64,000 nt of DNA from Lachnospiraceae bacterium. Its GTDB lineage: Bacteria; Pseudomonadota; Alphaproteobacteria; RF32; CAG-239. The position numbers were made by a program, and so were the translations under genes. The stretch spans positions 64,746-128,745 of the forward strand of contig CAVBCV010000001.1 of the NCBI GenBank assembly GCA_963594125.1, written 5' to 3'. This document shows, in pieces, positions 13,525-59,557 of the stretch (its first letter is position 1; each line of letters starts with the position of its first letter). The notes below the pieces were generated by a model. That model was given only the letters and a program-made list of their open reading frames with translations. It did not search any database and was not told the origin of the DNA.

Positions 13525-14706
13525 ATGGTTCGGGTTCGTCATTTAGGAAATTATATCAAAAAACTAAATAAAATTCTGCTTGCCGCGGTGCTGATTTGCA
13601 TTGTGTGCTTTAATGTGGTTAAATTTTGCCGGTTGGCGGAAACAAATAATAGGCAGATTATAAATTATCAGTCACCGGTTGACGAGTTGCAAGATTTTAG
13701 AACTCCTCTGCCTTTGGAGCTGTATTTTGCGGAAAATTACGCTGAAAATAAAGAGCTTAAAATAGCGGTGTTTGCTGTTGATGAGCGTGTTTTTGGCAAG
13801 CAAGCATTAAAAACACTGCAAAAGAAGTTAAACATGGTTCAAAATGGGCAGGGGTTGTTGGTTTTTAGCCATAATAATGCTGATTATGCTAATCGGCTTG
13901 CAGAAAAATTGCAATTGCAGCTGCAAAAAATTGAATATAAAGAATTTTCAGATAAAATTGTGGCGCAGATTAAAGCGCATATAGCGCAAAAAAATAAATA
14001 TGTGTTGTTGATTTTGGATATGGAAGAGCTTGAGAGTAAGCAAGCCGGATTACAAATTGCCAGAGAGCTTAATTTGCGTCCGCGAGTGTTTAACTTAAAT
14101 GATGAAATGCCGCGGGTTCATAAAACTAAAAAAACAGAGCTAAATGATGAAGATTTAAGTTTGGCACAGCAGGAAGAAAATTTAAAGAAGTTTGCGGCGG
14201 ATTATGAACCTCAATTAGCGCGGTTTTTGAAAGACGTGTATGCCGGTTTTTATAAAATGCCGGAATATTCAGCCGCTGATGAGCATTTGTTTGACAGAGG
14301 TGTGGCGCAAGTTTTGGCGATTGATGAAAATAACGGCATATATAAGCAATATGGCGATATTTCTGCCGATACGGCTTTGGCGCGTTCATTGCTTAAAGGT
14401 TTTACTTTGGCAAAACAAGAAATGCCTGAGGCTCAGTATAAGTTTTTTATTTTAACCCGCACAAATAAGAAAAAATACGCCGTTGAAGATGATTTTATAA
14501 AAGAGATTAAAGCCGGTGAAGACGGAATAATGCTGGTAAACGGCAATAGGCGGGCAATGTTTTTGCCTTATTTTTGGAATATTTATCCCGATAAAGAAAG
14601 TTTTATTAAAAACTTAAAAATCAGCGCCGGTTTAAGCCCGGATTATTGGTCAAAAAAAATAAAAGTTTATTATTTCAGAGCAGTGGAGATAAAATATGAA
14701 AATTAA
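13525..14706 (+). CDS. Membrane-anchored protein with a divergent C-terminal AMMECR1-like domain.
   Basis: 393 aa. N-terminal TM segment ILLAAVLICIVCF. The C-terminus, DGIMLVNGNRRAMFLPYFWNIYPDKESFIKNLKISAGLSPDYWSKKIKVYYFRAVEI, matches the AMMECR1 consensus (hGl..g.rrGtlLPqVwe..pdkeeFl..l..KAGL..d.W....v..F.a). The canonical LRGCIG cysteine is not evident. Confidence 0.55.
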   Translation: MVRVRHLGNYIKKLNKILLAAVLICIVCFNVVKFCRLAETNNRQIINYQSPVDELQDFRTPLPLELYFAENYAENKELKIAVFAVDERVFGKQALKTLQKKLNMVQNGQGLLVFSHNNADYANRLAEKLQLQLQKIEYKEFSDKIVAQIKAHIAQKNKYVLLILDMEELESKQAGLQIARELNLRPRVFNLNDEMPRVHKTKKTELNDEDLSLAQQEENLKKFAADYEPQLARFLKDVYAGFYKMPEYSAADEHLFDRGVAQVLAIDENNGIYKQYGDISADTALARSLLKGFTLAKQEMPEAQYKFFILTRTNKKKYAVEDDFIKEIKAGEDGIMLVNGNRRAMFLPYFWNIYPDKESFIKNLKISAGLSPDYWSKKIKVYYFRAVEIKYEN

Positions 14707-16414
14707 AGGATATGAAGTAAATTTCAGTGAAGAAGAACTTGATACGATTTTAACTGAAAAAACACGTGAAATAGAACTTATATCACGCGAGTTTGAAGGT
14801 TACAAAAGCCTTCCTATCGGTGATAAGAAGGCTATTGACCACTTAATTAAAGCTGCTGACATAATAAATAATGTGGCGCTTGAGCAGGATAATCCGTATA
14901 ATTTGGAAATTAAGCGCGAGATGGAAAAGTTGGCGGTTAATGACGCTTATGTTGCTAAAGTGCTGCAACTTTTTAATTGTTTGAACGGGGTTGCCGGAAA
15001 TAACGGCATAGATAAAGATCCGGTGCGGATTTTTAAGAATTTGCCGCTTTTTAAGGGTAAAAATTTTTATCCGACAGATTTATCGGAAGAAGAATTTCAT
15101 GAAATTATTTTAAGGATGGCGGAAAGAGGTAAAATTGATGAATTGAAAAAGATTTTATCTGCCCGCACCATGGTCAGAAGAAACGGCGATGAACTAAAAG
15201 CCATAGATTACACGGAGTATTTTGCGCCGCAGTTTTCTGAAGCTGCCAATGAGTTGGAAGTGGCGGCTTATTATTGCACGGAGCCGGAATTTAAGGAGTT
15301 TTTAAGTTGGCAAGTTCAGGCGTTGCTGCAAAATAATCAGGATATGGATATGCTGGCTGATAAGCATTGGGCATTGCTGCAAACGAATAATTTGGAATTT
15401 ACTATTTCACGTGAAAATTATGAAGATGAAATGACCGGAACAGTGTTCAACAATCCGGAAGTGGCTAAAATTATCAGTGATAATAATATTGAAGTTGTGG
15501 CAAAAGATACGCTTGGCTGCAGGGTGGGTATTGTTAATAAAGAAGGCACGGAAAACATTTTGAAGTTTAAGCAGACTATACCTTATTTAGCTCAGTGGAT
15601 GCCGCTTAATAATAAATATAAACAAAACAGTTTTTCTGAAAAAGACTTAAAACAAAATATGGTTGATGTTGATTTAATAGCCTTAACCGGTGATTATGCA
15701 ATGTGCCGCGGCGGTATTACGCAAGCGCAAAATTTGCCTAATAACGATAAAATTGCCGTAAAATGCGGCGGATGGCGGCGCAATGTTTATCATCGCCAGG
15801 TTTTGCTCAGCTATGATGTTGAAAATGAAAAGAAATTGCTTAATCGTTTGGTTGATCCAGAGTTGCATAAATATGTTGATCACTCGCGGATAATTATTTT
15901 TGATATAGGGCATGAAAACGGACATTCACTTGGTCCGACAGCAGAATATCAAAATGCGCTCGGCGTGTTTAAGCATATTATTGAAGAACATAAAGCCAAT
16001 GTGTTTTCTATTGCGTCAATAGCAGAACTGGCTAAAAAAGAAGAACGTTTTACTAAAGAAGAATTGAAAAAGATTTATGCTTCATGGGTGGTTGAAACAC
16101 TGTTTTTAAGAGCGCGACCGATTTTTTCACAGCCGCACCGCATGGCTTCATTAATAGAGTTTAACTACTTGTTTGAAAATAAAGTTATTTGGTTTGATAG
16201 CAATAAAAAGCTGCATATAGATTTTGATTTAATCGGTATGGTGGCGTACAGACTGCTTGAAGAGACAATCAGAGTTCAGCTTTCAAAAACGGCAAGTAAT
16301 GCTAAATCCTTTATTAATCGTTGGGCGGTTTGGGGTGAATGGTCGCGCCATATTGCTGATGTGCAGCAAGAGTTAGGCGTAAAGCCGTATATCAAAATTA
16401 TAACCAATTTTTAA
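14696..16414 (+). CDS. Putative zinc-dependent metallohydrolase or peptidase (HExxH motif), family unassigned.
   Basis: 572 aa. Motif FDIGHENGHSLGP (HENGH) with downstream Glu residues (IIEEHKA). The start has a GGAG RBS and overlaps the upstream gene by 11 nt, which implies translational coupling. Confidence 0.5.
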   Translation: MKIKGYEVNFSEEELDTILTEKTREIELISREFEGYKSLPIGDKKAIDHLIKAADIINNVALEQDNPYNLEIKREMEKLAVNDAYVAKVLQLFNCLNGVAGNNGIDKDPVRIFKNLPLFKGKNFYPTDLSEEEFHEIILRMAERGKIDELKKILSARTMVRRNGDELKAIDYTEYFAPQFSEAANELEVAAYYCTEPEFKEFLSWQVQALLQNNQDMDMLADKHWALLQTNNLEFTISRENYEDEMTGTVFNNPEVAKIISDNNIEVVAKDTLGCRVGIVNKEGTENILKFKQTIPYLAQWMPLNNKYKQNSFSEKDLKQNMVDVDLIALTGDYAMCRGGITQAQNLPNNDKIAVKCGGWRRNVYHRQVLLSYDVENEKKLLNRLVDPELHKYVDHSRIIIFDIGHENGHSLGPTAEYQNALGVFKHIIEEHKANVFSIASIAELAKKEERFTKEELKKIYASWVVETLFLRARPIFSQPHRMASLIEFNYLFENKVIWFDSNKKLHIDFDLIGMVAYRLLEETIRVQLSKTASNAKSFINRWAVWGEWSRHIADVQQELGVKPYIKIITNF

Positions 16415-16462
16415 GATTGTTCGGCTAAAATTGCCTCAATAACAGTTTATAAGGAGACTGAA

Positions 16463-16831
16463 ATGTTTGGAAAATTGATTTACGGACAATTTTCACTTAA
16501 AGAAACTTTTTGGAAATACGGAGTGTTAGGTATTTTCGGGTGTTCTTTGGTAACCAAAATTTTTAAAATGTTTCTGCTTAAACATCTGAAAGGTGTTTCA
16601 TTAGGCGTTTATTACACGCGTTATTTTTCACCGCTTAATATGGATAATACCATGCTGTTTTTAACCATAGCATATTTTGTTTGTGCGTTTGCTCTTACTG
16701 TATATTGCATTATGGTTATCTTCGGGGTTTGGCGCAGCGCGGCAGAATATGATAAAAGCGTGTGGATGCGCCATATCGCGAAACTGATGATTTTATTGAC
16801 GGTTTATGCCGGATTAATGTTCGGATTGTAG
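16463..16831 (+). CDS. Hypothetical small membrane protein.
   Basis: 122 aa with 3-4 hydrophobic helices. AAGGAG RBS. Confidence 0.55.
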   Translation: MFGKLIYGQFSLKETFWKYGVLGIFGCSLVTKIFKMFLLKHLKGVSLGVYYTRYFSPLNMDNTMLFLTIAYFVCAFALTVYCIMVIFGVWRSAAEYDKSVWMRHIAKLMILLTVYAGLMFGL

Positions 16832-16839
16832 GATAAATT

Positions 16840-16998
16840 ATGAAAAAAGTGTTTTTATTGTTTGTAATTACCATGTTGGGGGCTTGTGTGGTATCAGGTG
16901 ATTTTCCTGAAAATCGTAATCGGTTGCATGAGTTGGGGCGTGATGATGTTTACTGCCAAAAAAATCCTGACAAGTGTATAGACGGCATACCGTGGTAA
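16840..16998 (+). CDS. Small lipoprotein, not in the ORF track because it is shorter than 60 aa.
   Basis: 52 aa: MKKVFLLFVITMLGAC, with a lipobox L-G-A-C, then VVSGDFPENRNRLHELGRDDVYCQKNPDKCIDGIPW. AGGAT RBS. Confidence 0.5.
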   Translation: MKKVFLLFVITMLGACVVSGDFPENRNRLHELGRDDVYCQKNPDKCIDGIPW

Positions 16999-17018
16999 TT
17001 TGCGGCAAGCGGTAAAGC

Positions 17019-17615
17019 TCAGGGTTGGCGCTCTATAAAGCGGCGCAATGTGCTGCGCTGAACGTCTAACCGGTTGGCAATTTCAGTTTTTGAGCAGCCT
17101 TTAGATAATAACTGCTGAATTTTACTCACGCTTTTGGAAAGCTTGAGCTTTTTTGATTCAGCAGAAAAAGGGCGTCCGAGCTTTTTGCCGGAAGCTTTTA
17201 GGTTGGCAAGCGATGATTTGGTGCGCTGTGAGATTAAATTACGCTCAATTTCAGCCGCTAAGCCGAAGGCAAAAGCCAAAACTTTAGACTGAATATCATT
17301 ACCTAAGCGATAATTTTCTTTTAAAGTCCAAACCTGACAATTTTTGCTTAAACATATTTCTAAGATGCGCATAACTTCAAGCAAAGAGCGCCCTAAACGC
17401 GATATTTCGCAGGCAATTAAAATATCGCCTTCTTGCAGAGAATCTAATAAACTTCCTAATTTACGGCTTTTAAGAGCTTTGCGTGATGAAATTTTTTCCT
17501 CAACCCATTGATTAATTTTTATGCGATTCTTTTTAACGAATTGTTCAATTTCATAGTGTTGGTGTTCAAGGGTTTGCTTTTGCGAGCTGACGCGAATATA
17601 GCCAATAACAGACAT
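17019..17615 (-). CDS. Serine recombinase (resolvase/invertase family). It is an orphan with no transposase nearby.
   Basis: 198 aa. N-terminal catalytic motif IGYIRVSSQKQTLEHQ with the Ser nucleophile, and a C-terminal HTH (CSKTEIANRLDVQRSTLRRF). Confidence 0.85.
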   Translation of the reverse strand: MSVIGYIRVSSQKQTLEHQHYEIEQFVKKNRIKINQWVEEKISSRKALKSRKLGSLLDSLQEGDILIACEISRLGRSLLEVMRILEICLSKNCQVWTLKENYRLGNDIQSKVLAFAFGLAAEIERNLISQRTKSSLANLKASGKKLGRPFSAESKKLKLSKSVSKIQQLLSKGCSKTEIANRLDVQRSTLRRFIERQP

Positions 17616-44758: not shown

Positions 44759-44950
44759 AACAGAGCAGAAAAATTTAAAAACTCCGGCGGTTTTTAATTA
44801 AATTTTTACTTCGCAAGGCTAAAAATATATCTGAAGTATAGTATGTTACAAAAATGTGAAGATTTTGCCATAATCGGCGGAATATCTGGATTTTTGGTGC
44901 TTTTTGTGCTACGATACAAAATATATTAAGTAGGCGTGCGAGGTAAAACT

Positions 44951-45745
44951 ATGTATTTGTGGGTTGTAATAGCAACGTTTATTACCATCTTACTGTCATA
45001 TAATTTGTCAGTAAGACCGGATATGGATAGGGCTTATGCGGAAACAAGAGCCAGTGTTGCTATTGCCAAATTCAGAGCATTGCACAACGGGGTCAGAGAT
45101 TATTTAATTTCAAGAGCGCCGCAACTGACGGGGCTGACCAGAGTTGATTTTTATCCCGGTGACGGCGTTAATATTTCAAAAACCGACGGCGACGGTTCGC
45201 AATACAAGGTTTTAACTTATGATCTGATTAAAGATTATCTGCCGATTGGCTATGCGCAGGAAGGAAAAACCTTAGATGACGTTGCCAACATTACCGGCGG
45301 CGGCAAAATTGTGAGCAAGGTTTTTTGCTTTGCCGACGCGAATACTGACGCGCAATGCGTTTCAGGCGTTGACGGCAGTTGCTGCCATATTTCCGCTGAC
45401 GGCGCAACCGGCGCTAAAATATACGTTGTTACATTTACGCAAATGCCTACAAGATGGATTAATAAAGTTTCAAATTTGCCGAATGCCGACATGATGGCGG
45501 CAATGGCTCATGTGCATGGTTACGGACGCCTTTTCGGCTACACTGAAACCAGAGGCGGCAAGTTGCTTTTGAGCGGCGGTAAACTTGTGCAAAATTATGA
45601 TGATTACGGCAACCCGATAGGCGCTGAAAAACTTGAGCGTTTGGAAATTTATAAAGCGATTAAAAACGATGCCGATTTTCAAAAATCAGGTTGTAACAAA
45701 GAAAATGTTCACTGCTTGTTTGAAATAGAGCAAATTTACGGTTAG
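44951..45745 (+). CDS. Hypothetical membrane-anchored protein with a pilin-like N-terminal helix and a C-terminal Cys pair. It has no recognisable prepilin cleavage motif.
   Basis: Start moved to the ATG at 44951 (GAGG RBS). The track start is a GTG. N-terminus MYLWVVIATFITILLSYNLSV, followed by an amphipathic helix (RPDMDRAYAETRASVAIAKFRALHNGVRDYL) that resembles pilin alpha1-C. C-terminal C-x6-C (GCNKENVHC). Confidence 0.5.
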   Translation: MYLWVVIATFITILLSYNLSVRPDMDRAYAETRASVAIAKFRALHNGVRDYLISRAPQLTGLTRVDFYPGDGVNISKTDGDGSQYKVLTYDLIKDYLPIGYAQEGKTLDDVANITGGGKIVSKVFCFADANTDAQCVSGVDGSCCHISADGATGAKIYVVTFTQMPTRWINKVSNLPNADMMAAMAHVHGYGRLFGYTETRGGKLLLSGGKLVQNYDDYGNPIGAEKLERLEIYKAIKNDADFQKSGCNKENVHCLFEIEQIYG

Positions 45746-45755
45746 GAGAAAACAG

Positions 45756-48700
45756 ATGAAAACGCAATATAAAAACTTTATCAGTAAAGTTAACCAGACC
45801 GGCAGCCTTATGATTGAGGCGATGGCAATGTTGGCGTTAATTTCATTGGTTACGCCAACCCTTTACAAAAAATCGGCGGAAAGAACCACTGAATTGCAGG
45901 ATATTAACACCGCAACTCATGTGCGCACCATTATGAAGGCGGTTGACAACTATGTTACCGCTAACTACCAGAGTTTGCTTGATACCAAGCTGCGCACTGA
46001 CGGTTCAGTTTATGAAATTGATTTGAATGATGACAGTTCGGAAGACAGTATTCATGACTTTTTCCCGTATGGTTATAAGTTTGATGACTTAAAGAACTTC
46101 GGTATGCCGAAAGTTATGTTGAAAAGACAAGGATTTTCAATTACGTCATTTGTACAGCTGCCTAAAAAGACCGACATCGGCGAGATGCGCGCCGCGCGTA
46201 TTGCCTCAATGATTGGTAGTAACGGCGGTTATGTTAACAGCGACAAAAACGCGCTTGGCGTTGGTGGCGTGTGGAGCTTGAATCAGGCTGATTTGACCTC
46301 ATTGGGTTTTGATACCAATAAAGGTTCAGTGGTTGTGGCTTCATCAGACGCTATTAACTCGGCATCAACCGGTGCGCTTGAAAATGATAAATACTTGCAA
46401 AGAACTCCGGTAGACAGACCGGATCAGCTGTGGCGCAATACCATGATTACCGACCTTTACATGGGCGGTGTTACCGGTGTTGACGATATGTATAAAATTT
46501 TGGGTGTTGACCAGTTGATTATGGGTAGTGCTGAAAAAGCTACCTATCAGGATAGGGAAACCTTGGTTTTGACTGAAGATGCTCAAGGCGGTGGTTCTGC
46601 TTGGATGGCGGGCACGTTGTCAGCTTTAAGCGACGCGTTTAAGGTTAATGGCACTTCTGATGAGCCAATTTTGACCTTTGCTGATGCTGATGGCACGATT
46701 ATGTCAGCGGATTCGCACCTTTTTAATGTATTCCCTACTGCCGATGGCGGTGTTGGACTTGAGATTAATGGGGATAATTCCAGTGTTGTTACCGATTATG
46801 CCACCACGATTAATAATGATTTAACGGCAACCGGCGATACCTTAGTGGCAAGCGGAGGAACCGATACCTCATTTAAGGCAGGTCCGGACGGACGTTATAT
46901 TACAGCTGACGCCTCAAAAGTTTTGTTGCAAAACGGGCAAGTTGAAATTTTGGATGATGACGGCAGCGGCGCGGTAACCAATATTAAGGGCAGAGCTAAT
47001 ATTACCGGCGCGACTACGGTTGGCACCAAAGCTACAGATGCCACGGATGGCGATATGGAGGGCATACATAACAATTATCAGCTTAAAGTTTACGGTACCG
47101 GTAATGCTTATGTGGCAAATGACTTGGTTGTCGGCAACACTTTATATACTAAAAAGTTTAATACTGCGGAACTCCATGCCGGCGGCGAATTGTTGGCGAA
47201 CGATAATGCTCGTTGGTTGCATGCAACCACAAACGGCGTTAAAGTTACTGACCCGACCGATTCTGCTAATGTCAAAACCCGCATGGAAATTACGCAAGAT
47301 ACGACCGCTTTATATAATAGAGAGGGGTCTAATTCTTTAACCGGCGGTGAGATGGTGTTGGGGGCGAGCGGTTCCCGTTTAACCGGTAACGATATGGTTG
47401 AACTTTATACCACTGATGATAACGGAGAAGTTCAGTTACAAGATAAAGCTTTGGTTATCAGAGGCAAAACCGAAACAAGCGGCGGCAGAAACGCGATTAT
47501 CAGCGCAGATGCCGACACGATAGATTTTAACGCTAACTATACCTCAGTTAATGACGGTGTATTTCGGGTTAGACGTGAAGATAATGCTGCCGGTATGCAG
47601 GACAGCTTGTATGTGAACCCGAATGAAAATACTAACCAAGGTTTGGTTTTGGCAGAGGCTAACCGCACCACGGTTAGACCGCGAGGCAATGATGGTATTT
47701 TTGATGTTCAGGATGAGGATGGTAAACGAGTTTTGAACGTTATGCCGAACGGGCTTAATGGCGAAACAGTGAATGTAGGATATAACTCATATACTCGTCC
47801 GATTGGTACGGTTGATGTGGATAAAGAAAGTGTCAGCTTCTCAGATGTAACCGGTGGTTCGGCTTATCGGGTTGTTGAAGTTGATCTTGATAGGTCATTG
47901 GCGCAAAAAACAGATGATAGCAATCCGACCAGAGGCAGCGTTTATATTCGTCGCGGCGCGGTTGAATTAGAATCGCCAAGCGGAGCCGGATATGAGGCTG
48001 ATGCCGGTTATGGCTATATTGAAGCCGGTCGTTTTGTGGCTAACACTAAATATGATGGCACGAAAATTGATAATCCGTCGGATGCTTATCCGAGTGATTA
48101 TACAAAAGGCTGGAATACATCAGACAGAGTTGCCTATGATCGTTATATGGTTAATCCGGCTTATACCTCAGTTATGCATGATATTAAGCTCACGACCCGC
48201 GGCGGCGCGCGTTTAAGCGATATTTTGCCTGACTTTATTAATAAAGGTATTTATGTGGTGAACAATACTTATAAAGATACCGGTTTCAGTCTTGATAGCA
48301 TTACGGCAACAGTTAATAATGGCGGTCAAATTTCGGTAAGCGCAGGCGCGGGCGCGGATGTTACAGAAGTTCCTGGTGGCTCTTTATCTGGTGCAGATCA
48401 ATGGGCGTCACCGTTTTTGGGCGTGGTGCCGGCGCCGTTATGTCCTCCGGGGCATGCCCGCGTGATTACGATTACGCCGGCAGGTTTTCAGATGTCACAA
48501 GCCGGACAAATGGTTAAAAGAGAGCATTATGTTGGGGCTGGAAAAACTGGCGCTGGTAACCGCTTTGTGGTTGATGAAAGAGCAAACTTGGAGGAATTAG
48601 GACAAGTTAAAATAAATATGGCTGATGATACGCAAACAATTAGCGGCGCGCAGTATTATCATAATACGATTACGGATTCCGCCAATAACACTCGTGACCT

Positions 48701-49211
48701 TTATTACTTAGGTCACGCGAATGAGCCTACATTAACTAAGACAAATAATGATCCGTATTCACCGCAGCCGCTTTATTTCCAACAAAGCACCTGGCTGAAG
48801 AGTAAAGTACAGCCGCAGGCTAATGGCGCAAAGGGTTCATGTAATAATACTTTGGGCAGTGGCGAAGGTTGTACAAACTTTGTAGGTTGGTCGGCAATTA
48901 TGGGCTTTATTTATCCGGCAAGTTTGTATGAAAATATTATCAGCGCGGTTGTAGGAAATCCTCCTAAGGATGAAGATGTTTACTGGAACGTCTTTCCGGT
49001 TAAAGCCAAAACGTTGGAGGCGTACGCTACGGTTTATTGTTACTTTGATAGGACTAACTTGTATGTTCTGCCAGGTGAAAAAGGTCTACAACCTGAGTAT
49101 ACCGATCAGTATGATCAGTTAAACTCATTCAGAACAGGTCGTACAAAACCGAATAGTACTTATACCGACAGATTGGATGACCCGACCTTGAAATATAAAG
49201 AACCGTGGTAA
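45756..49211 (+). CDS. Giant (1151 aa) type IV pilin-like protein with a class III (prepilin) signal peptide. Putative modular pilin or adhesin.
   Basis: Strong AGGAG RBS. N-terminus MKTQYKNFISKVNQTG|SLMIEAMAMLALISLVTPTLY has G at -1 and E at +5 and a hydrophobic alpha1-N, followed by a pilin-like amphipathic segment (YKKSAERTTELQDINTATHVRTIMKAVDNYVTANY). The remaining roughly 1050 residues are G/T/D/N-rich and beta-rich, with Cys residues only near the C-terminus. A terminator follows. Confidence 0.6.
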   Translation: MKTQYKNFISKVNQTGSLMIEAMAMLALISLVTPTLYKKSAERTTELQDINTATHVRTIMKAVDNYVTANYQSLLDTKLRTDGSVYEIDLNDDSSEDSIHDFFPYGYKFDDLKNFGMPKVMLKRQGFSITSFVQLPKKTDIGEMRAARIASMIGSNGGYVNSDKNALGVGGVWSLNQADLTSLGFDTNKGSVVVASSDAINSASTGALENDKYLQRTPVDRPDQLWRNTMITDLYMGGVTGVDDMYKILGVDQLIMGSAEKATYQDRETLVLTEDAQGGGSAWMAGTLSALSDAFKVNGTSDEPILTFADADGTIMSADSHLFNVFPTADGGVGLEINGDNSSVVTDYATTINNDLTATGDTLVASGGTDTSFKAGPDGRYITADASKVLLQNGQVEILDDDGSGAVTNIKGRANITGATTVGTKATDATDGDMEGIHNNYQLKVYGTGNAYVANDLVVGNTLYTKKFNTAELHAGGELLANDNARWLHATTNGVKVTDPTDSANVKTRMEITQDTTALYNREGSNSLTGGEMVLGASGSRLTGNDMVELYTTDDNGEVQLQDKALVIRGKTETSGGRNAIISADADTIDFNANYTSVNDGVFRVRREDNAAGMQDSLYVNPNENTNQGLVLAEANRTTVRPRGNDGIFDVQDEDGKRVLNVMPNGLNGETVNVGYNSYTRPIGTVDVDKESVSFSDVTGGSAYRVVEVDLDRSLAQKTDDSNPTRGSVYIRRGAVELESPSGAGYEADAGYGYIEAGRFVANTKYDGTKIDNPSDAYPSDYTKGWNTSDRVAYDRYMVNPAYTSVMHDIKLTTRGGARLSDILPDFINKGIYVVNNTYKDTGFSLDSITATVNNGGQISVSAGAGADVTEVPGGSLSGADQWASPFLGVVPAPLCPPGHARVITITPAGFQMSQAGQMVKREHYVGAGKTGAGNRFVVDERANLEELGQVKINMADDTQTISGAQYYHNTITDSANNTRDLYYLGHANEPTLTKTNNDPYSPQPLYFQQSTWLKSKVQPQANGAKGSCNNTLGSGEGCTNFVGWSAIMGFIYPASLYENIISAVVGNPPKDEDVYWNVFPVKAKTLEAYATVYCYFDRTNLYVLPGEKGLQPEYTDQYDQLNSFRTGRTKPNSTYTDRLDDPTLKYKEPW

Positions 49212-49228
49212 TCGGCACACAAAAGCCA

Positions 49229-49260
49229 AACAGCCTCTGATTAAATCAGAGGCTGTTTTT
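49229..49260 (+). terminator. Rho-independent terminator after the giant pilin-like gene.
   Basis: CAGCCTCTGA-TTAAA-TCAGAGGCTG (10-bp stem) followed by TTTTT. Confidence 0.85.
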
Positions 49261-56742: not shown

Positions 56743-57726
56743 ATGGCAAAATTTTTTCAGTTTCTGGGAAGTATCTTAGAGGGACTTCTGATGGTTGTAA
56801 TTTTTTACAATCCTGTATCTTTCGTGATTTGGAGTTTTGTCGCTCCGAGGAAAGCCGCCGCAATTATGGTCATCAAAGATGATGACTCAAAGTTTATGGA
56901 CTTTTTGAGCAATCTGCACAAGCCGCTCACTCATCTGTACCCGATGTGTATCAGAAAGCACTTCATGAAGGCTTTGGGGATGTTTAATTATTCCGCAAAG
57001 GCTCAGGTAAAAGCTTTCAGAGCCTTGAGCGAAACAGATTCGCCTGAAAAGGCAGTCAAAATCGTTAAGCAAATGAGTGACTTAGGAGCATCCAAACTTT
57101 GGGATGACAATATGGTCAGGAACCGGAGTTATAACCACATAATTACATATGCGGTAACTGAATCCGGAAAATCGTTGACAACTCGTCAGCTTAAAGACTT
57201 GTTCGCGAGGGAAGATTACGCCAATTTTGCTGTCTATGCCAAGAATCACACTCTGAGCAAAGCCGCTTTGGAATTGCTCATTGAGAGAATGAAGCAGAAG
57301 TCAGGAGACAAAGAGTCTTTTGATGAGTTGCAAGGCGTTCTTTTTAGTCAAATTGAAAAGAACGGTCTTCCGGCGAATCTGGTGGAAAAGGCAGTGGAGG
57401 CATGCGGTGAGAATCAGCTTGCTATCACAAAAGCTTTTGAAGTATTCCGCCAAAAGACGGTCGTGCTTTCAAGGCAAAAAGAGGCTTTTGTTCCACTTAT
57501 TAAGTATGAAAAGCTTTATCCTTCGGTGGAGGCGATGCTTAGTGAGGAGCAATACAAGCTCTATTTAGAAACGGGTAGGCGCTTGAGCGATGAGGCTATT
57601 CGTGAGTTTATCGCTCGCGAGAACATTGGCATGTGCAAGCTTATCTTTAAAAATGAAAAGCTTTCACCAATAGCGTTGTTGATGGCCAAGGCGAATCCTA
57701 AATTCGCCGTGATGATGTACGTCTAA
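56743..57726 (+). CDS. Hypothetical protein with an N-terminal hydrophobic segment. First gene of a compositionally atypical cluster.
   Basis: 327 aa with no recognisable motif. Codon usage (AAG, CTG, AGG/AGA, GAG frequent) differs visibly from flanking housekeeping genes, which favour AAA, TTA/TTG, CGC/CGT and GAA. Confidence 0.5.
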   Translation: MAKFFQFLGSILEGLLMVVIFYNPVSFVIWSFVAPRKAAAIMVIKDDDSKFMDFLSNLHKPLTHLYPMCIRKHFMKALGMFNYSAKAQVKAFRALSETDSPEKAVKIVKQMSDLGASKLWDDNMVRNRSYNHIITYAVTESGKSLTTRQLKDLFAREDYANFAVYAKNHTLSKAALELLIERMKQKSGDKESFDELQGVLFSQIEKNGLPANLVEKAVEACGENQLAITKAFEVFRQKTVVLSRQKEAFVPLIKYEKLYPSVEAMLSEEQYKLYLETGRRLSDEAIREFIARENIGMCKLIFKNEKLSPIALLMAKANPKFAVMMYV

Positions 57727-57744
57727 CTATAAAAACTGACAAAC

Positions 57745-58281
57745 ATGACAGATTTTCAAATTATGCTGGGCGGGCTTTCGTTAGTCTTGTTCGGCGGAGC
57801 TTTCACTTTACTGTTGTGGGGTGATTGGAAAAAGGCAAAAGCTTTTAAGGCTATTCTGATTGTGGTTGTGGCTATCAGCGCAGTTGGCGCTTTTTACGCC
57901 ATATACAGCCAGATTAAGCTTACTGAGCAAACAACTGAAAAGTATGTGCTTGTCTCTTTTGAGAACCAGTATTCAACAGTTAATGAAACTGATGTAATCG
58001 GGCTTGATGGAGATTCATACACTATCCTTCCTACCGGCAACAAGCTTCTTAAAAAGACCTTGTACGGGAATTTGGAGTGGCGGGATACTTCGGTTGTTCA
58101 GCAAATTGATTCAGCAGGCAACAGCGAGCCAATACGCATTGTTACGCTAAAAGCCAAAACGCTCAGAATCGGCAGCGCAGAAGCAACCAGGCCTAACCAA
58201 TCCGGCGCCGAGATTAAAGTAAAATGCCGGTATAACATTGGGGATACGGTAAAGGTCCGCGGCGACCGCATCGTTCCTTAA
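57745..58281 (+). CDS. Hypothetical two-TM membrane protein with a beta-rich C-terminal domain.
   Basis: 178 aa. TM1 LGGLSLVLFGGAFTLLLW and TM2 ILIVVVAISAVGAFYAIY. C-terminal ...KCRYNIGDTVKVRGDRIVP. A terminator follows. Confidence 0.5.
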   Translation: MTDFQIMLGGLSLVLFGGAFTLLLWGDWKKAKAFKAILIVVVAISAVGAFYAIYSQIKLTEQTTEKYVLVSFENQYSTVNETDVIGLDGDSYTILPTGNKLLKKTLYGNLEWRDTSVVQQIDSAGNSEPIRIVTLKAKTLRIGSAEATRPNQSGAEIKVKCRYNIGDTVKVRGDRIVP

Positions 58282-58293
58282 CGATTATTTCTT

Positions 58294-58323
58294 AAAAAAC
58301 TCCTCAGTTGAGGAGTTTTTTTA
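58294..58323 (+). terminator. Rho-independent terminator inside the atypical cluster.
   Basis: AACTCCTCA-GT-TGAGGAGTT followed by a T8 run. Confidence 0.85.
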
Positions 58324-58388
58324 ATGCCCTCTTGATTTATTTTAAAGTTCTCGTTATAAGGTAATCAGAAACCAAATTTTTATGATAT

Positions 58389-58994
58389 ATGTATGAGATT
58401 TTAAGAGTTGTGATGATTGTTTGCGAAATCGCGATGATCATCGGTTTTGTGTTCTTTGTTATCTTCCAAGCTTATTTTTGGAGCGACAAAGATCATTCTA
58501 AAACCTTTTTCATGTTTGCGCTGTATTCATTGCTTGGCGTGAGTATTTGCGGATGGTTTATTCATGGCTGCGCGCTGAATACGGGCGCTATTGTGCCTGC
58601 GGTTGCGGTATTGCTGATTATGGCTCAATTTTGCTTTTTTAAGGAGCGGTGGCAAAACTTTCATGTTAAGGAGCGCTCGCTTTTTAAGAAGCTCAAAAAA
58701 GCGCATATCTTTGCAATTTTGGCACTGATACTGTGTTTTTCAGGCGGTTACGGCTATTGCAAAAAGCAAAGAGCGGATTATCAACGCGCGCATGCAGATA
58801 TGTATGTGGTTGTCGGGTTTAATGTGAAGGCGGCAAATTATGGTCTGGTCTCAGTATATGATACGGATGATGACCATTTGTTTGTGGCACTCAGACCTGT
58901 AAATCGCTTTAAAGCAAATCCGAAAGTGTTAATGACCAGAAAATATCATCTTGGGGATACGGTATTGATATTTCACAATAAACCACTTTCATGA
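58389..58994 (+). CDS. Hypothetical 4-TM membrane protein.
   Basis: 201 aa. The C-terminal motif ...KYHLGDTVLIFHNKPLS resembles the C-terminus of the preceding gene (RYNIGDTVKV). Overlaps the next gene by 4 nt (ATGA). Confidence 0.5.
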   Translation: MYEILRVVMIVCEIAMIIGFVFFVIFQAYFWSDKDHSKTFFMFALYSLLGVSICGWFIHGCALNTGAIVPAVAVLLIMAQFCFFKERWQNFHVKERSLFKKLKKAHIFAILALILCFSGGYGYCKKQRADYQRAHADMYVVVGFNVKAANYGLVSVYDTDDDHLFVALRPVNRFKANPKVLMTRKYHLGDTVLIFHNKPLS

Positions 58995-59557
58995 TGTATG
59001 CAGCAGCGCTTGCAGGCATGATTATTTGCGGAACGTTTCTGTTGCTCGCTTTCATATTTTATGTACGCGCGCAATGGGTGTTTTGGTTCTATTACGGGGA
59101 AGAGCTGTATTGTCCGATAGGTTTTATTATGGTGCTTTTGTTTAGTGCCTCTTATGCGGACATGCTGCTTCCGCTTAACGGAGCCAATTTGTTAAGTTCC
59201 GCTTTAATTTTTATGTTTGCGTCCGCCGCACAATATGTGTGCGGTCAGGTACGGTTGGCTGAAATGCACAATACACCCCCGTGGTGTTGGGAGCATTATG
59301 CCAAAAAATTTATGCCGGTGTTTATTGTCGCCGTTGTTGCTTTGCGCTTTGCTTTTGCAGGGTGCTTGGAATATCGGGAAAATTACCGTTGGAACAATGC
59401 CGAATCGGTTGAAGGAAATTCGGAAGTGAGAGTTTTTAACGGTAAGCAAATTAAACGGCCGGTTTCGGAACTAATGCTTGAGCAACAAAAAATAGGCTCG
59501 GCAGTTGCCAAAGAAAGACAACGCGCCGCCAAAGCCAAGCGAAAGTCAAGCAAATGA
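58991..59557 (+). CDS. Hypothetical multi-TM membrane protein with a basic C-terminal tail.
   Basis: 188 aa. The tail is KERQRAAKAKRKSSK. CTG-rich codon usage. Confidence 0.5.
   Translation: MMYAAALAGMIICGTFLLLAFIFYVRAQWVFWFYYGEELYCPIGFIMVLLFSASYADMLLPLNGANLLSSALIFMFASAAQYVCGQVRLAEMHNTPPWCWEHYAKKFMPVFIVAVVALRFAFAGCLEYRENYRWNNAESVEGNSEVRVFNGKQIKRPVSELMLEQQKIGSAVAKERQRAAKAKRKSSK

Follow-up and report, generated by a model that had tools for sequence, protein, structure and literature searches.

The large type IVb minor pilins TcpB, of the toxin-coregulated pilus (TCP) of Vibrio cholerae, and CofB, of colonization factor antigen III (CFA/III) of enterotoxigenic Escherichia coli (ETEC), are located at the pilus tip and initiate assembly and retraction, and both systems need the large minor pilin for the initiation of assembly (PMC5207764). 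TcpB comprises 423 mature residues, and GspK, the largest subunit of the tip complex in the type II secretion system (T2SS), carries a hydrophobic residue at position 5 (PMC5207764). Modular pilins are widespread, with more than 1200 proteins in 264 architectures and mention of an 860-residue example (Raynaud et al. 2021, PMC8179133). Here we describe a tandem gene pair in a 64-kb stretch of contig CAVBCV010000001.1 (assembly GCA_963594125.1, positions 64,746 to 128,745; the whole stretch is hereafter the window), of which gene 2 encodes a very large protein, referred to below as the giant, and gene 1, directly upstream, encodes a smaller partner. We consider it moderately probable that the giant is an oversized, modular, TcpB/CofB-like type IVb minor pilin that is encoded apart from the pilus locus and accompanied by a leaderless partner. 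Judged by its sequence, the giant would consist of a class III leader, a pilin module (~190 residues), a variable, beta-rich stalk (~450 residues) and a C-terminal portion (~400 residues) that is conserved.

The translated reading frame of gene 2 opens with a basic leader of 16 residues that has Gly at position -1 and is followed by Glu (E21) at position +5, exactly as the original prediction had it. Beyond the cleavage site the protein reads S-L-M-I-E-AMAMLALISLVTP, with a hydrophobic run of ~17 residues that is slightly short and ends at Pro+18. When all six frames of the window were searched for a G-x4-E motif joined to a hydrophobic run, gene 2 was the sole case. Basic leaders of 9–17 residues that end in Gly are present in all full-length homologs (82/82), E21 is invariant, and the signal motif is kept in 82 of 84 open reading frames (ORFs), the remaining two of which end at a contig edge. 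The family N-terminal consensus, with a slash at the cleavage site, reads G/[SGT]-[LMI]-[ML]-[IV]-E-A-[ML]-A-[ML]-L-x-L-[IV]-x-x-[VI]-T-P-x-x-Y-[KR]-K-x-x-E-R-x-x-E-x-x-D-[IV]-N in every full-length member examined, and it persists where overall identity drops to ~30%. The N-terminus, proposed at the outset to be prepilin-like, behaves as a class III signal conserved family-wide, the full-length homologs having retained the G/E motif.

The full-length AlphaFold model of the giant has a mean predicted local distance difference test score (pLDDT) of 63 and contains a helix at residues 4–69 and a confident alpha/beta domain that extends to residue ~205. When residues 1–215 are modelled alone (pLDDT 79.8, predicted template modelling score 0.67), a continuous helix spanning residues 2–69 packs on a beta-sheet, in the manner of a pilin and not of an ordinary signal-anchor. 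In structure the first ~205 residues come closest to type IVb pilins, together with the minor pilins CofB and TcpB, and residues 17–205 are accordingly modelled, and here predicted, to have a pilin fold of type IVb character. Profile searches of Pfam and NCBIfam with both proteins gave no match at E-values up to 1, including to Pfam PF07963 (N_methyl) and to the NCBIfam prepilin-type cleavage/methylation domain, and PDB sequence searches with the giant alone, with the full-length profile and with the alpha1 profile found no pilin or other relevant match. The giant likewise has no match at E up to 1 to the TadE/Tad-type N-terminal domain (Pfam TadE, Tad), and none in Pfam to the PilC/PilY1 beta-propeller. 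Comparison by hhalign with the small pilins of the same bacterial lineage aligned 41 columns in register at Gly-1/Glu+5, with 27% identity (probability 38%, P 3e-4); the alpha1 sequence of the giant is distinct from, and only loosely similar to, that of the major pilins of the lineage.

Sequence identity along the giant is high over residues 1–250, peaks at residues 801–850, takes intermediate values over the final 150 residues, and is low, with many insertions and deletions, between residues 300 and 700. Relatives that are 85–91% identical differ in mosaic blocks of the stalk and the C-terminal region, residues 1–50 being 100% and residues 801–850 being 96–100% identical. Residues 207–290 are modelled with pLDDT below 50, yet residues 201–250 show 66% identity to the reference. 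Residues 795–837, the block in which the family varies least, have a pLDDT of 33–42 in the AlphaFold2 (AF2) monomer model, and the bin that covers residues 801–850 is 84% identical to the window protein. Since this block is the most invariant and yet not foldable as a monomer, the model hints at a candidate oligomerisation or partner-binding element. The beta-rich stalk and C-terminal part bears a weak resemblance to the C-terminal half of TcpB, and a Foldseek search of the PDB with the full model gave nothing at E ≤0.001 and only weak matches to phage fibres. As a lead from modelling, the giant may fit the TcpB/CofB plan (pilin module, beta-repeat, C-terminal beta domain) in a greatly lengthened form.

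The composition of the gene 2 product is rich in Gly, Thr, Asp and Asn (10.6, 9.2, 8.6 and 7.3%), as had been noted, whereas the accompanying claim of almost no Lys was overstated, Lys making up 4.4% of the residues beyond residue 100. The expectation that Cys would be restricted to the last ~250 residues holds, with Cys only at positions 896, 1029, 1039 and 1095. The further suggestion of a disulfide-bonded D-region fails, because the pilin module (residues 17–205) is without Cys: none occurs in residues 1–895, and the four that exist lie ~700 or more residues past the module. Such a D-region is not universal among pilins.

The gene 1 protein begins directly with a hydrophobic helix (MYLWVVIATFITILLSYNLS) and lacks a leader as well as Gly-1 and Glu5; it is taken to be leaderless because the ATG of the M-Y-[LI]-W start is the first possible start in most loci. 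It has a hydrophobic residue (Val/Ile) at position 5 and Pro at about position 23, so far as sequence can tell resembling an already-processed pilin minus Glu5. M1, Y2, W4, D24, G100, G196, C248 and C255 are invariant among 36 homologs, the last two of them forming the C-terminal C-x6-C pair that the original prediction had pointed out. Gene 1 has no relatives in Pfam or NCBIfam, nor, when used as a profile, in the PDB. Gene 1 and the giant have in common a YLPxG[YF] motif, which is equally far from the N-terminus in both proteins (P 1e-4 and probability 57% over 18 columns in hhalign). A paralogous origin of gene 1 and the pilin module of the giant could not be upheld, as the match is local and confined to these 18 columns, global alignment failed, and no match to small pilins was found; the earlier description of gene 1 as pilin-like is therefore unproven, the stretch around YLPxG[YF] being its sole link. 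The gene 1 product is probably a bitopic inner-membrane protein, with a C-terminal domain that, to judge by its conserved Cys residues, would lie outside the cytoplasm.

Homologs of the giant are full-length proteins of ~910–1475 amino acids (aa), all annotated "hypothetical", and all come from metagenome-assembled genomes (MAGs) of uncultured gut or rumen Alphaproteobacteria, which bear names such as "Azospirillum sp. 51_20", Candidatus Scatocola and "uncultured Azospirillaceae"; the assignment of the window to a host-associated alphaproteobacterium is borne out by these relatives. The family counts 271 clusters at 90% identity and 232 GTDB species representatives, as well as 643 clusters at 50% identity (291 of them at E ≤1e-30) from a search that was filled by full-length family members and had more distant architectures out of its reach. 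Across the 232 species the giant gene is single-copy and stands in varied housekeeping contexts. In 81 of 84 loci the giant is directly preceded by a gene 1 homolog of like orientation, and the remaining three loci end at a contig edge; the median spacing is -4 nucleotides (nt), an overlap. The flanks of the pair vary by lineage and include the ftsZ/ftsA region, ribosomal protein genes and, in the window, proS/pheT; as the pair is kept in 81/84 loci despite these differing flanks, it constitutes a self-contained two-gene cassette. In all sources examined, genes 1 and 2 are an obligate two-gene operon confined to uncultured gut and rumen Alphaproteobacteria.

In a subclade of ~30 species (e.g. 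L034:3595-9039) the cassette is divergent to fliL-fliM, a DUF6468 gene, an MgtE_N-like gene and a gene for an 857-aa protein of no assigned family, and a conserved secreted protein of ~250 aa follows the fliL-fliM-linked cassettes. A general flagellar association was rejected, the fliL-fliM neighbourhood being present in only ~30 loci of one subclade, and the linkage is regarded as lineage-specific synteny.

Pilus components are found in the lineage that carries the giant. Six loci (L012, L018, L027, L028, L044, L046) encode, within 10 kb of the giant, seven proteins of 199–243 aa with short leaders and N-termini of the form G/RSM[VI]E[MI]LGVLAI.. (one form being G/RSMVE), and one of these small pilins matches the type IVb pilin families PilS (2e-14) and Bundlin (5e-13) of Pfam. 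In two species (L032 and L035) a Peptidase_A24 protein of 237 aa is encoded 2–3 kb downstream of the giant, past groES-groEL. It scores 60 bits against a cutoff of 26.5, contains the motif GGGDIKLLAAIG, lacks a methyltransferase domain, and has 346 relatives, several of them named "prepilin peptidase [Alphaproteobacteria bacterium]"; a prepilin peptidase, which the original prediction named as a point to check, is present in the lineage and in these two species on the contig of the giant itself.

A metagenome scan with the small pilins recovered 78 loci, 11 of which contain a complete type IVb locus: a TcpQ-like protein, secretin, PAP_PilO, a protein without assignment, a T2SSE ATPase and a T2SSF platform protein, then a pilin-like 191-aa protein, tandem PilS/Bundlin pilins and a second T2SSE ATPase. 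Database copies of this locus on MAG contigs have two to four tandem pilins, and one of the ATPases is named "GspE/PulE family protein [Alphaproteobacteria bacterium]". The machinery of the lineage is of type IVb and not of the Tad type. The only class III proteins of the locus are pilins of 190–205 aa, its large ORFs bearing Sec-type signals, and the locus is therefore without a large minor pilin of its own. Housekeeping proteins encoded beside orphan pilins are 60–92% identical to those beside giants, as befits members of one lineage. A GspE/PilB-type Walker A motif was absent from the 1.6 Mb flanking the giants, a sample too small to inform. The lineage, then, encodes the means to process and assemble pilins.

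Further features of these pilus loci were recorded. The PilS-type genes often form tandem arrays of 2–4 diverged copies (e.g. L087, L090, L094, L097, L100, L121, L128, L135, L143), and orphan copies are likewise numerous between housekeeping genes, which suggests pilin multiplicity or antigenic diversity. The gene after T2SSF encodes a product of 191–195 aa (L135:8338-8913, L162:12803-13387) that is weakly similar to Bundlin/PilS and has a membrane helix at its N-terminus, but lacks Gly-1/Glu+5; besides gene 1, the lineage thus has another pilin-like protein that is atypical and apparently not cleaved. Divergent from the type IVb locus (L162:1-2888, L163:1-2867, L164:1-2867) lies a conserved block that encodes a TrbC/VirB2-like conjugative pilin (PF04956), a 156–229-aa protein and a secreted product of ~1000–1450 aa with no Pfam match. 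A secreted protein of 1840 aa that carries a pectate-lyase-like adhesive domain (L027:1371-6893) is encoded beside an orphan PilS-type pilin gene, 2 kb 5' of the giant cassette.

On the basis of these data, the following course of events can be envisaged. The giant would insert into the inner membrane via alpha1-N, and the A24 prepilin peptidase of the lineage (235–240 aa, no methyltransferase domain) would cut its leader after Gly16. The pilin module might then dock with PilS/Bundlin-type major pilins on the type IVb machine (TcpQ, secretin, PilO, T2SSE ATPase, T2SSF platform), and the giant, as the largest and low-copy pilin, would be the first, tip-located subunit, probably an oligomer and possibly a trimer, that primes assembly of the major pilin. 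The stalk and C-terminal module would thereby be displayed at the pilus tip, where they could bind a ligand in the gut. The leaderless, Cys-containing, bitopic gene 1 protein most likely assists or joins the tip complex of the giant and, given the hydrophobic position 5 of GspK, might speculatively be its cap or partner. In this scheme we infer that the giant is cleaved and built into a filament, as well as its place at the tip, its oligomeric state and its role in adhesion. A more elaborate version, which we think improbable, would have a new pilus-tip unit in which leaderless gene 1 serves as a "mature" pilin-like cap above a trimer of the giant, with residues 795–837 driving a long, phage-spike-like fibre; being leaderless and having a hydrophobic position 5, such a cap subunit would not need the prepilin peptidase. 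To our knowledge, it would have no precedent as a leaderless type IV pilin-like subunit, and the unit would rank among the largest filament-borne pilins.

Several observations weigh against the interpretation of the giant as a minor pilin. Its hydrophobic segment, ending at Pro +18, falls ~3–4 residues short of that of the lineage's small pilins, and sequence-level homology to known pilins is lacking in the Pfam N_methyl, NCBIfam and PDB profile comparisons. A highly conserved C-terminus behind a variable middle is not the pattern that diversifying selection on a simple ligand-binding tip would produce. Pilus machinery never adjoins the cassette, which sits among housekeeping genes in the window and in ~80 loci; the giant-bearing contigs yielded only pilins and the peptidase, the full type IVb locus having been seen on related MAG contigs. 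Matching of whole-genome shotgun (WGS) prefixes in database records did not place a giant and a type IVb ATPase or peptidase in the same genome, and the evidence for machinery is at the level of the lineage, the window's own genome being represented by 64 kb. A trimer of 120-kDa subunits would need passage through the secretin. The gene of a type IVb minor pilin normally follows that of the major pilin in the operon. By motif and fold the giant qualifies as a type IV pilin; by sequence models and operon position it does not.

Some of these points would equally suit a pilin-like membrane anchor that might be processed but is never polymerised, and that either stays in the inner membrane, forming with the gene 1 protein a fibre across the periplasm or envelope, or works as a pseudopilus-type plug or piston in secretion, an explanation that we judge unlikely. 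The consistent separation of the cassette from pilus machinery, the leaderless and bitopic nature of the gene 1 partner, the distinctness of the alpha1 of the giant from that of the major pilins, and a size that may make passage through the secretin questionable are all compatible with it, and type IVb systems can secrete TcpF and CofJ. Such an anchor makes the strict conservation of Gly-1/Glu+5 over hundreds of divergent sequences hard to explain; moreover, a mosaic, hypervariable stalk is what is expected of a surface-exposed part, and the overall plan would agree with that of the tip-located TcpB and CofB.

Another alternative is that the giant is a signal-anchored or Sec-dependent surface protein of the ordinary kind, without connection to type IV filaments. 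Its G/E motif would then have to be a lineage-specific feature of the transmembrane segment, serving for instance its packing on the gene 1 helix. The failure of pilin hidden Markov models (HMMs) and PDB sequence searches to match the giant is in line with such a protein, as is the tendency of AF2 to render any N-terminal transmembrane segment as a long helix. The in-register alignment with the PilS-type pilins of the lineage, the existence of these pilins and of the peptidase, and the combination of a short, basic, Gly-ended leader with an acidic residue in the membrane helix, which is atypical for Sec anchors, argue against it and make it distinctly less credible than a pilin-like anchor. 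It is very improbable that the giant is a tail fibre or spike of phage origin, or a part of a contractile-injection apparatus, that was domesticated and joined to a membrane helix: the beta-rich part does show weak structural matches to phi92 gp138, the phiKZ spike, T5 pb4, T4 gp34, VgrG and Rhs, but no phage, type VI secretion system (T6SS) or extracellular contractile injection system (eCIS) genes are near it in the window or in 80 related loci, the gene is retained in one copy throughout the 232 species irrespective of context, and TcpB and CofB possess similar beta-repeat parts.

Both ORFs are present in tandem on the + strand as first described (Table 1). The ORF list starts gene 1 at GTG 44936 (44936-45745, 269 aa), and the conserved start is ATG 44951. 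The upstream GTG, which would add the stretch MRGKT, was rejected because most homologs have no in-frame upstream start codon, some show a stop codon directly upstream of the M-Y-[LI]-W ATG, and the added stretch coincides with the ribosome-binding site; purine-rich sequences of Shine-Dalgarno type precede the conserved M-Y-[LI]-W start in the homologous loci. Gene 1 ends with TAG 45743-45745, 10 nt short of gene 2, and this gap, together with an AGGAG that overlaps the gene 1 stop, makes co-transcription of the two genes likely. The shared promoter region of the original prediction is without statistical support, as promoter-like sites in the region (13, against 11.3 expected from shuffles) are not above chance. 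The strong terminator was correctly recognized, and its hairpin is common to the operon and the convergent proS.

Table 1. The two-gene cassette, its expression signals and the segments of the giant, in window coordinates
Feature	Position	Strand	Description
Candidate sigma-70-like promoter, 5' of gene 1	44845..44874	+	GTTACA-18-CATAAT, extended TG; 9/12 matches; weak
Shine-Dalgarno GAGGT, gene 1	44940..44944	+	6 nt 5' of ATG 44951
Gene 1	44951..45745	+	264 aa, MYLWVVIATF...; partner protein, directly 5' of gene 2
Shine-Dalgarno AGGAG, gene 2	45744..45748	+	7 nt 5' of ATG 45756; overlaps gene 1 stop
Gene 2	45756-49211	+	1151 aa, begins MKTQYKNFISKVNQTG/SLMIEAMAMLALISLVTPTLYKK; 1135 mature residues
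Leader peptide of gene 2	45756..45803	+	Residues 1-16, MKTQYKNFISKVNQTG; putative prepilin peptidase cleavage after Gly16
Pilin module	45804..46370	+	Residues 17-205: Glu+5, hydrophobic alpha1-N, helix to residue ~69, alpha/beta domain
Conserved segment	46371..46625	+	Residues 206-290; low model confidence; probably linker or interaction region
Variable stalk	46626..47975	+	Residues ~291-740, beta-rich, indel-rich, mosaic among close relatives
Most invariant family block	48138..48266	+	Residues 795-837, ...YDRYMVNPAYTSVMHDIKLTTRGGARLSDILPDFINKGIYVVNNTY; invariant columns Y797 to N837
Conserved C-terminal region	48267..49211	+	Residues 838-1151 + stop; beta-rich, all four Cys; presumed distal/functional module
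Hairpin, bidirectional intrinsic terminator	49228..49258	.	14-bp stem, 3-nt loop, T-runs both sides

According to Pfam scans, the window ORFs of ≥150 aa comprise housekeeping genes and a few unannotated ORFs, and none belongs to pilus machinery, so that the reported absence of pilus assembly genes from the window stands. The annotated genes are rho, eno, dnaE, serS, those of a MacAB-TolC-like pump, prfA, hisS, rodZ and ptsP, followed in the list by hda, pgm, mipZ, a D-Ala-D-Ala carboxypeptidase gene, proS, pheST, trpS, der and bamB. Two further regions of the window may be mentioned. Between trpS and der (56743-59557, +) there are four consecutive ORFs of 327, 178, 201 and 188 aa with no Pfam match, three of which carry N-terminal membrane segments. 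A 572-aa ORF without a Pfam match (14696-16414, +) lies near a serine resolvase gene (17019-17615, -), and together (14696-17615) they may be a small mobile insertion.

The Alphaproteobacteria that host this cassette are uncultured and common in the guts of humans, ruminants and other animals. A conserved giant with a mosaic, fast-evolving stalk is a candidate factor for binding to the host, to mucus or to partner cells. It would extend the modular-pilin idea to more than 1100 residues, and it indicates that current models of the N-methylation motif overlook a whole family of class III proteins. The cassette also offers two natural tests, one of the size limit that a type IVb machine and its secretin impose on a tip subunit, and the other of whether a leaderless partner can enter a pilus tip complex.

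In the type IVb thin pilus of R64 and Salmonella Typhi (PilL–PilV, with PilS as major pilin), the minor pilin adhesin PilV is a larger protein of ~430–470 aa with a variable C-terminus that sets binding specificity; its gene closes the pil operon, and its variation is due to a shufflon. The type IVb locus of the present lineage, with its TcpQ-like protein, secretin, PAP_PilO, T2SSE, T2SSF and PilS-family pilins, is like that of the thin pilus, whereas the giant has neither shufflon nor operon linkage and the prepilin peptidase of the lineage is encoded elsewhere. PilY1/PilC of type IVa pili, with ~1000–1200 aa, are similar to the giant in size. They also share with it the proposed role of a large tip-associated protein (PMC8179133). 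PilY1 is, however, a non-pilin with a Sec signal and a C-terminal beta-propeller (IPR008707) that rides on a minor pilin complex, in contrast to the giant with its own pilin module and class III N-terminus. As regards gene 1, its hydrophobic position 5 (Val/Ile) is shared with GspK, which differs by an alpha-helical insertion and by a leader of the normal, cleavable kind, whereas gene 1 is leaderless and its pilin fold unproven.

Like the modular pilins PilB and PilC of Streptococcus sanguinis, the giant has a small pilin module bearing bulky functional modules for presumed display at the pilus tip. The modular-pilin survey is defined by the N-methylation motif IPR012902 (PMC8179133), which HMMs miss in the giant, and the extra modules of the giant match no known domain family and belong to proteins of ~910–1475 aa, in comparison with the 860-residue example. 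The giant differs from the known modular pilins in its size, in an N-terminus missed by N-methylation models, in the lack of recognisable extra domains, in its separate locus and in its obligate leaderless partner.

From TcpB and CofB the giant is distinguished by its length, which at 1135 mature residues is more than twice that of TcpB (423) or CofB (~500; 496-residue chain 4qs4), by the lack of detectable sequence homology and of Cys in its pilin module, by an alpha1 only loosely similar to that of the major pilins, and by its position in a separate two-gene cassette with a leaderless partner instead of behind the major pilin gene. With both it has in common a class III leader and Glu5, a predicted pilin module followed by what would be beta-rich extra domains, and a lineage whose major pilins belong to the type IVb families PilS and Bundlin. 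The term "undescribed architecture" used in the original prediction was too strong, since modular pilins are known and TcpB and CofB share the plan of a pilin module, a beta-repeat and a C-terminal domain.

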